Source: Bythopirellula sp. (lineage in GTDB: Bacteria; Planctomycetota; Planctomycetia; Pirellulales; Lacipirellulaceae). Taken from it: DNA of 64,000 nt. Shown here in pieces: positions 37,933-39,133 of the stretch. The notes under the pieces are model-generated. The model made no database searches. It saw only the letters and a program-made list of their open reading frames with translations, and had not been told where the DNA came from. The position numbers and the translations under genes were made by a program. Location: NCBI GenBank assembly GCA_965216565.1, contig OZ244170.1, positions 768,001 to 832,000 on the forward strand. Direction: 5' to 3'. Within the stretch, counting starts at the first letter, position 1, and each line of letters begins with the position of its first letter.

Positions 37933-38449
37933 TAGTCCGTTTCCTTGCCAGTGATGTCCTGGTCGATCTTGCTTCCTGAATAAATCCGATACGGTATGAA
38001 TCAGTTAATTAGAGCGTCCACGCACCGCCCCGGTAGCGCAGATTTACCTTGCTCTGGCGTTATGATAAGGGGGTTTCCCACACATTGCAATCAAATGGTT
38101 GCAAGAAAAGCGGCTATTCTCGGCTAGGCCTAACACGAGAGCGATATTGTCTATTTTTCGTATTCTACGGCACCGTTAAACACTTGGTTTGAATAGGTTT
38201 ACGCAATGGCAAGACACTCGGGAACCTCTCCCCCACTTTCTATCGGACATGCGCATTCAAATTCACGGTATTGCGCATCGTAGGCAGTTTCCCCCATTCG
38301 CTTAGAAAGCGAGCTGAATCCAGATGCTATTGAGACCTGACGAGATTGAGTAAAACGAACCTGGAAATTGATAATGCACAGGCGAGATGGTATTTTCTGG
38401 CACTTGCGAATCACTTGCTCTTCACTCCTGATTGTTGGTGGAGATAACC

Positions 38450-39133
38450 ATGGCTAAAGAAAAATTCGAGCGTACTAAGCCACATGTCAACGTCGGCACG
38501 AATTCCGCAACGTTGGAAGATACCTCGGGTTCACTAGTTGTTACCGACTCTGCGATACCTACTGGGAACGACTCAGGATCCACGGATGTTGGCGCGTCTG
38601 GTCTTTCTCTAGACGGACCGGCGTCTCCCTCGCCAACTGTTGAATACACGGCTTCAGTAGCCTTTCCAATTGACACCGATTTTGTATTCGATCCAAACAG
38701 CAGTGGCGCCGCTGAATCGATCGACTTTCAGTTTGAAGTGATGTCACTTGGTATTGCTGGGGCAGACGATGTCGAAATTTCTCTGGCTATCTTGCAGGGC
38801 GAAGCGTTTGTCTTCTCGCGAACAGGTGTCTCGCTAGTTATCGATAGTGCGGATACAAAATGGACTCCGTTTCAAGTGACAGACGCACAGGCCACAGAAT
38901 TCAACGCAGTTGATGGAGGGAGTGAGCGCCCCGACTTTAGTCGGCCCTTCCAATTCGGCTACTCGTTGACTAGCGAATACACCAACACCGCATTGGATGT
39001 CGACTTGGCACTGGACAACATGGTTGTGGAGATTACCACCATTCCCGAGCCAACATCTCTGGCGCTCGTGGCAGCAATGGGTGTGTCGCTGCTTTGGGAC
39101 CGTCTGTGGCGAGACGATAAGGGGCCTACATAG
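38450..39133 (+). CDS. Chimeric ORF: EF-Tu N-terminal 17 aa fused to a PEP-CTERM protein lacking a signal peptide (possible pseudogene)
   Basis: Starts [17 protein letters not shown] after a GGAG RBS and ends [14 protein letters not shown].. Confidence 0.8.
   Translation: [227 protein letters not shown]

Follow-up and report, generated by a model that had tools for sequence, protein, structure and literature searches.

The elf18 peptide, which is sensed by the plant receptor EFR, comprises the first 18 residues of EF-Tu with an acetylated N-terminus. Chimeric open reading frames (ORFs) made from the 5′ ends of housekeeping genes are known from plant mitochondria as cytoplasmic male sterility (CMS) genes; these are young, lineage-specific and mostly harmful. 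Bacterial PEP-CTERM proteins are characterised, in the passages of the original description that define the class, by the Pro-Glu-Pro (PEP) motif, a helix, a basic cluster and a signal peptide, with PEP located at the periplasmic face, and 97% of the members carried a signal peptide after start-site review (Haft et al. 2006, PMC1569441). Here we analysed a gene that combines elements of these systems. It lies at 38450..39133 (+ strand) of a 64,000-nucleotide stretch of the planctomycete Bythopirellula sp. (contig OZ244170.1, positions 768,001 to 832,000; hereafter the window) and encodes 227 amino acids from the ATG plus a stop codon (39131-39133). As the initial annotation had recognised from sequence and ORFs, the EF-Tu N-terminus encoded at 38450-38500 continues in frame into a PEP-CTERM-type protein without a signal peptide. 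This EF-Tu-derived head of 17 codons (+ strand) is an old, selected feature of a single clade that has replaced a signal peptide. The gene is like CMS-type chimeric ORFs in that an unrelated ORF begins with a short 5′ segment of a gene that is essential and strongly expressed, and unlike them in that the graft is old, is distributed over three taxonomic families of one order and encodes a peptide under strong purifying selection.

Residues 1-17 are 100% identical to the start of the EF-Tu gene (tuf) of many named bacteria among the tblastn matches listed, and positions 1-18 of the NCBIfam EF-Tu models align to residues 1-18 (E 0.0018-0.008). The scores of 15-17 bits (15.3 for TIGR00485) stay far below the family cut-off (522.4), because no more than these 18 positions match. 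The window protein departs from EF-Tu after GT and the longest members of its family after GTIGHV. A P-loop (GH.DHGKT) directly after the N-terminal strand is not present in the window protein, and the family has neither a G domain nor domains 2 and 3. Judged from the sequence, the EF-Tu match of residues 1-17 is nevertheless far beyond chance.

The same start was found throughout a family of about fifty related proteins from related marine bacteria. At E<=1e-3, 49 protein database clusters were collected, all but the last three with E<1e-37; none contains a Pfam domain, and any given name is ‘hypothetical’. An EF-Tu-like start is present in 47 of the 49, in 46 cases as MAK[EV].F within the first 20 residues and in P0036 behind a miscalled upstream start, while of the remaining two one is only an N-terminal fragment and the other is short and divergent. 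The continuation TIGH occurs in 18 of the 46, so that up to 21 EF-Tu residues are kept, and in P0052 the match to EF-Tu models extends as far as position 25-26 (E 2.6e-7). The family motif can be written M-A-K-E-x-F-x-R-x-K-P-H-[VLI]-N-[VI]-G, and orthologues in the genomes G013, G363, G034 and G084 begin MAKE[KT]F[ED]R[TS]KPHVN[VI]G. When 41 related genomes were searched, G013, G034 and G012 proved to contain full-length homologues, and G019 a C-terminal remnant; the ORF starts are MAKETFDRSKPHVNIG in G013 and MAKKISSSVGKGGKN in G012, and G034 has a 17-residue EF-Tu-type start. On metagenome contigs, a profile built without the head detected 11 loci, nine with an EF-Tu-type head, one with a different head (MAKKIS) and one truncated. 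The ESM Atlas returned only unnamed or PEP-CTERM clusters.

These data bear directly on the suggestion of the initial annotation that a tuf fragment was recently inserted into this one genome, or that the gene is an assembly chimera. The abrupt end of the window head just before IGH could be taken in favour of such an event, as could two restriction sites, EcoRI at the junction and NcoI at the ATG. Against it stand the identical type of head in 47 of 49 homologues and in genomes of three taxonomic families of the order, and the coverage of the junctions by contigs from two studies. An old N-terminus shared by the orthologues is the very outcome that the initial annotation had named as refuting its proposal. 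Two Logan contigs of 7136 and 17847 nt, from two runs with the same organism label that may be the source data of the assembly, cover 38200-39300 with zero differences. A 3007-nt contig from the alga metagenome of another study covers 38412-39300 with five differences and thus bridges both junctions. Short extra pieces at 38448-38501 in metagenome runs run into GH.DHGK-type sequence and belong to tuf of other organisms. There is also no second genomic copy, the 261 bases around the EF-Tu piece occurring once in the 5.2-Mb genome (a single contig, labelled G000). Both a recent insertion and a chimera are therefore vanishingly improbable.

The resident tuf, which the initial annotation had wanted examined as donor, does not qualify either. 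The sole EF-Tu gene of G000 above the family cut-off lies 3 Mb from the window gene (L006 1498-2697, − strand; G000:C1:3793610-3794806) and shares 35 of 51 bases with the window head, third codon positions agreeing in only 3 of 17 cases, which rules it out as the source. E. coli genomes and a plasmid collection gave at best about 80% identity over 56-60 bases, all in tuf; the donor is untraceable because synonymous sites are saturated. As to the restriction sites, the NcoI site (CCATGG) lies over the ATG at 38448-38453 and the EcoRI site (GAATTC) at the end of the EF-Tu piece at 38499-38504. A cloning-cassette artefact bracketed by the two is ruled out, since the EcoRI site is missing in the other members shown and the family occurs in many metagenomes; the sites are taken as presumably due to chance.

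Among the genomes searched, the family was found only in the order of the host, where its distribution is patchy. In an order-wide sample of 401 genomes, nine matched at E<=1e-10 across three taxonomic families, comprising seven family members (one with a variant head, one a remnant) and two distant paralogues. In 120 genomes of the taxonomic family of the window, an EF-Tu-start pattern of the E4 type was present at 11 places in 10 genomes, five of them representing this protein family and six true tuf genes. One of these genomes, G836, has two copies of the family gene (L172 and L174, on C369 and C497), of which one is shortened to 130 amino acids by a frame change or stop, and the other extends as far as the end of its contig. 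When the head-less profile was applied to 401 genomes sampled across the phylum, 397 of which lie outside the order, G000 alone matched at E<=1e-20. A degenerate EF-Tu-start pattern was present in 155 of these 401 genomes, and two different pattern matches in one genome occurred, among the matches listed, only in G000, so no second kind of EF-Tu-headed protein was seen. In a tree of the core sequences, the 54 family rows form a clade with support 100/100 against 8 classical rows.

The body of the protein connects the family to classical PEP-CTERM proteins. When 1.84 billion representatives were searched with the head-less profile, 834 proteins matched at E<=1e-3, of which 13 at E<=1e-30 constitute the family proper. 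The distant relatives have 225-265 amino acids, a plain Sec signal peptide, the PEP motif, an arginine-rich (RRR) tail and a mature start of the type TF.D.TF..ADW. By hhalign, residues 29-215 of the window protein correspond to residues 60-238 of the classical protein P0068 (probability 99.9%, E 1.2e-32). Judged from where this alignment starts, the first ~59 residues of the classical protein, comprising the signal peptide and about 30 residues of the mature part, have given way to the head and some 8 further residues. A signal peptide, scored as a hydrophobic 11-residue window >2.0 in the first 40 residues, was detected in none of the 49 family proteins versus 81 of 118 others. The proposal that a tuf-derived piece replaced the signal peptide is thus supported, the body being homologous to PEP-CTERM proteins with Sec signal peptides.

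The upstream out-of-frame ORF pointed out in the initial annotation is indeed present (38368..38457, its ATG at 38374), but its interpretation as a remnant of the lost signal peptide is unconvincing, as the sequence 5′ of the ATG is unrelated in other members. For the same reason, a frameshift by which this ORF would supply a signal peptide is ruled out. The in-frame stretch 5′ of the ATG spans only 3-27 codons, with the exception of the high-GC genome G034 and its near-identical metagenome copy L157, in which the frame upstream of the ATG is open for >300 codons.

At the C-terminus, the protein ends with ITTIPEPTS, a hydrophobic helix and a 12-residue tail. The Pro-Glu-Pro motif occupies residues 199-201 (39044..39052, + strand) and is followed by a predicted membrane helix at residues 203-221 (39056..39112, + strand), supported by the modelled helix and by the hydrophobic sequence. 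PEP motif and membrane helix are thus in place near the C-terminus, and the basic cluster after the helix is not. The atypical tail of 12 residues plus stop (39095..39133, + strand), which overlaps the end of the modelled helix, has one near-invariant Arg followed by acidic residues instead. Mean tail charges were +2.51/−2.39 (net +0.12) in the family (n=49) and +4.04/−0.42 (net +3.63) in the comparison proteins (n=118), a contrast lowered by the few N-terminally cut family fragments that the 118 include. Pfam gave no match to the window protein at E<=0.1, and TIGR02595 none at E<=0.01 for P0001, P0052 and P0051; two of four classical proteins tested, P0099 (21.1 bits) and P0076 (17.1 bits), pass the TIGR02595 cut-off of 16. 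The assignment as a PEP-CTERM protein without signal peptide, also made initially, holds by homology and motif and not by model score. Compared with classical jelly-roll proteins of about 240 amino acids (P0068, P0073, P0076, P0099), the family has the same body, predicted sandwich, PEP motif and helix. It differs from the class, in the terms of the defining passages of PMC1569441, in the missing signal peptide, the neutral or acidic tail and scores below the model thresholds. G000 contains no full-length classical paralogue of this PEP-CTERM subfamily.

We then analysed sequence constraint along the protein. In a 49-sequence alignment, residues 1-16 were the best conserved stretch after PEP, the fraction of the commonest residue being 0.85 in residues 1-16, 0.63 in the core and 0.96 in PEP; M1, A2, K3, E4, F6, R8, K10, P11, H12, N14 and G16 were each present in >=90% of the aligned sequences. 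The proportions of nonsynonymous (pN) and synonymous (pS) differences, computed over 12 genes, were 0.108 and 0.745 (saturated) in codons 2-16, compared to 0.45 and 0.750 in the linker, 0.32 and 0.750 in the core and 0.29 and 0.678 in the part containing PEP and the transmembrane helix. The combination of frozen amino acids with saturated synonymous sites indicates that the constraint is on the peptide and not on the bases. The head is therefore under purifying selection on its amino acids out to residue 16.

This result limits what translation initiation can explain. The initial annotation had credited the tuf piece with a strong initiation region, and the head might be kept solely for efficient initiation and early elongation, as in tuf. 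A Shine-Dalgarno-like GGAG is located 6 bases 5′ of the ATG (38440..38443, + strand; the sequence directly before the ATG, 38440-38449, is GGAGATAACC). Runs of the type GGAG, GGGAG or GGAGGA precede the ATG also in G363, G034 and G084, and not in G013, i.e. in four of the five genomes shown, and the start is A-rich. The initiation regions of five members had no stable or shared RNA fold and folded no better than shuffled sequences (z +0.08 to +1.37). A favourable initiation region is thus possible, but it is insufficient as an explanation: an effect on initiation is not expected to reach KPH-N-G, and the selection concerns amino acids up to residue 16 at saturated synonymous sites. A role in expression alone is therefore improbable.

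On a 50-tip tree calculated from the core alone, head positions 2-4, 6, 8, 10-12, 14 and 16 were almost frozen, and positions 5, 7 and 9 had changed 16, 22 and 22 times (core median 11, 90th percentile 22). Asp7 occurred exclusively together with Ser9 (14/14 in the A1 alignment, 17/17 among the sequences of the tree); the usual partner of Glu7 was Thr9. At least 13 joint flips between the two pairs (D7/S9 and E7/T9) were counted on the core tree, some of them between sister sequences with good support; these could reflect epistasis on an exposed strand face or exchange of head alleles.

If the head were kept EF-Tu-like by repeated gene conversion from tuf genes, such joint flips might result, and in G013 the head (L106 1501-1548) and the resident tuf (L115) have 40 of 48 bases in common. 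This includes an identical 15-base run over KPHVN with the rarer AAT codon, and a local conversion may have taken place there. Resident EF-Tu begins MAKDTFE[RC]TKPH in G000, G013 and G341, MAKDTFERKKPH in G084 and MAKDTFTSTKPH in G363, and the G1 motif IGHIDHGKT is present in all five. The D4-T5 of resident EF-Tu was observed in none of the heads seen. Moreover, only 35-36 of 48-51 bases agree between head and resident tuf in G000, G363 and G084, with differences at residues 4, 5 and others. Given this low identity, continuing conversion is not the general cause of the EF-Tu likeness, and we consider repeated conversion very improbable. A second EF-Tu paralogue that scores above the family cut-off occurs in G363 (L119; G363:C1:50511-51683, − strand); its start is without the first ~8 residues of the usual N-terminal tail of EF-Tu.

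The pattern of constraint in the head resembles that of EF-Tu itself, the frozen positions being conserved in both, and positions 5, 7, 9, 13 and 15 being free in the head and variable in EF-Tu. It could thus be argued that a factor recognising the unfolded or nascent EF-Tu N-terminus must also recognise this protein. Such a factor might be a modifying enzyme, a chaperone, a protease, or a receptor or toxin from outside, and the protein would then be a tethered decoy or a client. All head states seen (ET, DS, VN, VD, IN, QT ...) occur among planctomycete tuf genes, and K10-G16 are frozen outside any G domain. Arg8 is kept in 47/47 heads, although some resident EF-Tu proteins have Cys8 (G000, G016, G018) or Ser8 (G363); in the phylum sample, Arg8 was found in all 47 translated tuf starts from the pattern matches, which are part of those listed. 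However, the head does not follow the resident EF-Tu, with E4-K5 versus D4-T5 in 5/5 genomes compared, and a similar spectrum would arise under any strong constraint by conservative single-base exchanges. The clade with the MAKKIS head does without an EF-Tu-like one, and we know of no partner for such a head. Altogether, peptide mimicry appears rather unlikely.

A structural role of the head was suggested by AlphaFold2. With the family alignment, the window protein was modelled with a mean predicted local distance difference test (pLDDT) score of 88.7 and a predicted template modelling score of 0.80; strands were placed at residues 2-8, 20-24, 30-36, 49-56, 66-72 and onward, and a helix at 203-221. 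The model of a classical protein (pLDDT 89.5) has the signal-peptide helix at 5-26 and strands at 32-38, 47-53, 61-67, 76-85 and onward. Fold searches matched both to the same chains. The family model aligned to 8qpg_TC with Z 11.4 (root-mean-square deviation (rmsd) 3.0, 142 residues aligned, model 4..195 on chain 53..199) and to the family 11 carbohydrate-binding module (CBM11) 1v0a_A with Z 10.5 (rmsd 3.7, 153 aligned, model 1..198 on chain 3..172). The respective values of the classical model were Z 11.9 (rmsd 2.8, 141 aligned, 34..218 on 53..199) and Z 11.3 (rmsd 3.8, 152 aligned, 31..222 on 4..173). Further matches of the family model included 1of3_A (Z 10.4) and 4xun_A (Z 9.9), with 56 chains at Z>=8 in total. 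Sequence identity to the CBMs is 6-14%, and the likeness concerns the fold of a predicted model only. Residues 1-198 (38450..39043, + strand) are thus predicted to form a CBM-like jelly-roll beta sandwich. Its residues 18-60 (38501..38629, + strand) are a variable, acidic, Ser/Thr/Gly-rich stretch (pN 0.45, commonest-residue fraction 0.46-0.52) that holds the modelled strands 20-24, 30-36 and 49-56. From the chain ranges common to both models, residues 1-4 of the family take the place of classical residues 31-34. Residues 2-8 (AKEKFER) are therefore predicted to be the first jelly-roll strand, at the place of the first strand of the classical mature protein. The alternation of frozen positions 4, 6, 8 and 10 with free positions 5, 7 and 9 is expected if one face of this strand is buried.

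We consider it probable that the EF-Tu start, as the genuine and conserved beginning of the proteins of an old family, derives from one ancient graft of about 21 tuf codons in place of the signal peptide and first strand. According to this graft model, about 21 codons of a tuf gene were joined once, long ago, to a PEP-CTERM-type jelly-roll protein, by which the Sec signal peptide and the first strand would have been displaced. By a single recombination with a tuf 5′ end, the truncated gene would have gained its start codon, an initiation region free of structure and a strand able to open the fold, and the protein would have become leaderless. Selection on the peptide would then have kept the head, and the change of the C-terminal tail may have accompanied a change in the insertion or handling of the protein. 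Since the PEP motif is invariant, exosortase recognition is argued to be still in play.

Several observations weigh against the graft model. A sister clade of four (G012, G341, L158 and P0051) has another conserved head, MAKKIS.SVGKGGKN, which is basic and Gly/Ser-rich (loci L017 1480-2133, − strand; L111 1366-2106, + strand; L158; P0051). Within the family, these four rows (support 99/89) are sister to the 50-row EF-Tu-type clade (97/90), and for this reason the tree leaves the point of origin of the head unsettled: it is compatible with an EF-Tu head in the ancestor of the family as well as with its arrival in the ancestor of the 50-row clade. The near-invariant K10, P11, H12, N14 and G16 are not obviously explained by a structural role, nor by any of the other hypotheses that were tested, and the model places K10-G16 in a loop of lower confidence (with a mean pLDDT of 67 over residues 11-20, compared with 86 over residues 1-10). 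The models are predictions, and a nearly invariant head gives no covariation signal in the alignment. Finally, both the CBM-like fold and the near-invariance of the PEP motif suggest a location outside the cytoplasmic membrane; this is difficult to reconcile with a protein lacking a signal peptide. The MAKKIS head was also considered as a mimic of some other resident protein; in G012 and G341, the pattern MAKKIS.SVGKGGK matched only the gene itself.

Two destinations of the protein can be envisaged. It has the features of a tail-anchored protein, since it lacks a signal peptide and its only hydrophobic helix lies in the last ~30 residues. The neutral tail, the basic head and the absence of a signal peptide would fit a tail-anchored protein that faces the cytoplasm. 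An extracytoplasmic site, reached by a leaderless route, would agree with the CBM-like fold, the presence of an exosortase gene and the invariant PEP motif. The topology signals from charge are in conflict, with a basic head, an acidic body, and one Arg followed by acidic residues in the tail.

In such a route, the EF-Tu head, or a short basic head such as MAKKIS, would replace the Sec signal while exosortase still acts on PEP. G000 encodes one exosortase (PF09721, 186.1 bits; G000:C1:4778479-4779237), all classical relatives are of secreted type, the body is very acidic with few basic residues, and both head types are short, basic and not hydrophobic. According to passages of a proteome study, EF-Tu was somewhat higher in wild-type supernatants than in those of type III secretion mutants, and one predictor called a type III signal in EF-Tu, for which the authors urge caution (PMC3852671). 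On the other hand, a folded domain of 200 residues without signal peptide is a poor substrate for translocation, the tail is without the positive cluster that fixes the classical topology, and the literature searched shows no established export function of the EF-Tu N-terminus. Leaderless export is thus unlikely.

The GC content at the locus (0.50-0.54) resembles that of the surroundings, which rules out a compositional island. Upstream, at 38346..38396 (+ strand), there are two overlapping sigma-70-like promoter candidates (TTGAGT-18-GATAAT and TTGATA-17-TATTTT), proposed from consensus matches of 9/12 each; on both strands of 37900-39400, three such sites were counted versus 1.0 +/- 1.1 in shuffled sequences. 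A classical 288-amino-acid PEP-CTERM gene with signal peptide is located divergently upstream (37066-37932, − strand), and in G013 a PEP-CTERM gene likewise lies just upstream of the family gene. The sole tRNA gene within the window is tRNA-Ala(GGC) at 36793-36866 (+ strand). Directly downstream and convergent with the EF-Tu-headed gene is a pair of thioredoxin-fold genes (39151-39651 and 39814-40452, both − strand), with Pfam matches to Thioredoxin_2 (E 2.8e-13) and DsbH-like (E 3.6e-9). It is followed by an ORF of 1332 amino acids (40797-44795, − strand), whose translation contains several internal Gly/Asn/Thr-rich repeats, each with ...GQLSLREA..., and an acidic, Asp-rich C-terminal part. 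A Pfam scan of 24 neighbours at 10 loci revealed no recurring gene neighbourhood except between the near-identical loci L110 and L160.

Ordinary as DNA, the feature is unusual as biology: it is a leaderless PEP-CTERM variant with a borrowed EF-Tu N-terminus. In the literature searched, no description of a PEP-CTERM protein with an EF-Tu N-terminus was found. It represents a rare case of a conserved family carrying the N-terminus of a housekeeping protein, in which the borrowed piece is more constrained in its amino acids than the domain behind it and is placed where an export signal is expected. It also provides a clean natural example of the recruitment and subsequent fixation of a new N-terminus, whose start codon and first strand would have been acquired together. 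The family raises the question whether a PEP-CTERM-type protein without signal peptide is possible and where it is destined. A second question is whether the EF-Tu N-terminus, a segment that bacteria in general conserve and that the plant immune system senses, could have a role independent of the G domain.

With regard to elf18, residues 3-17 of the window protein occur verbatim in 42 papers, of which the 20 listed deal with plant immunity and several name elf18 or EFR in title or abstract, so that the family carries the elf18 epitope region on a protein of the surface-sorting type. The window protein differs from elf18 at the first residue after Met and at residues 18-19, and nothing links these marine bacteria to plants with EFR. 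It is conceivable, though doubtful, that the initial 16-21 residues of EF-Tu constitute an autonomous module that can move between proteins, and that a surface-protein family captured it in exchange for its Sec signal peptide, as a signal for leaderless export or targeting. If this were true, the family would give a first clue at the sequence level to the way in which EF-Tu gets to the cell surface of bacteria, and the elf18 epitope region would be displayed on a dedicated surface protein of alga-associated planctomycetes.

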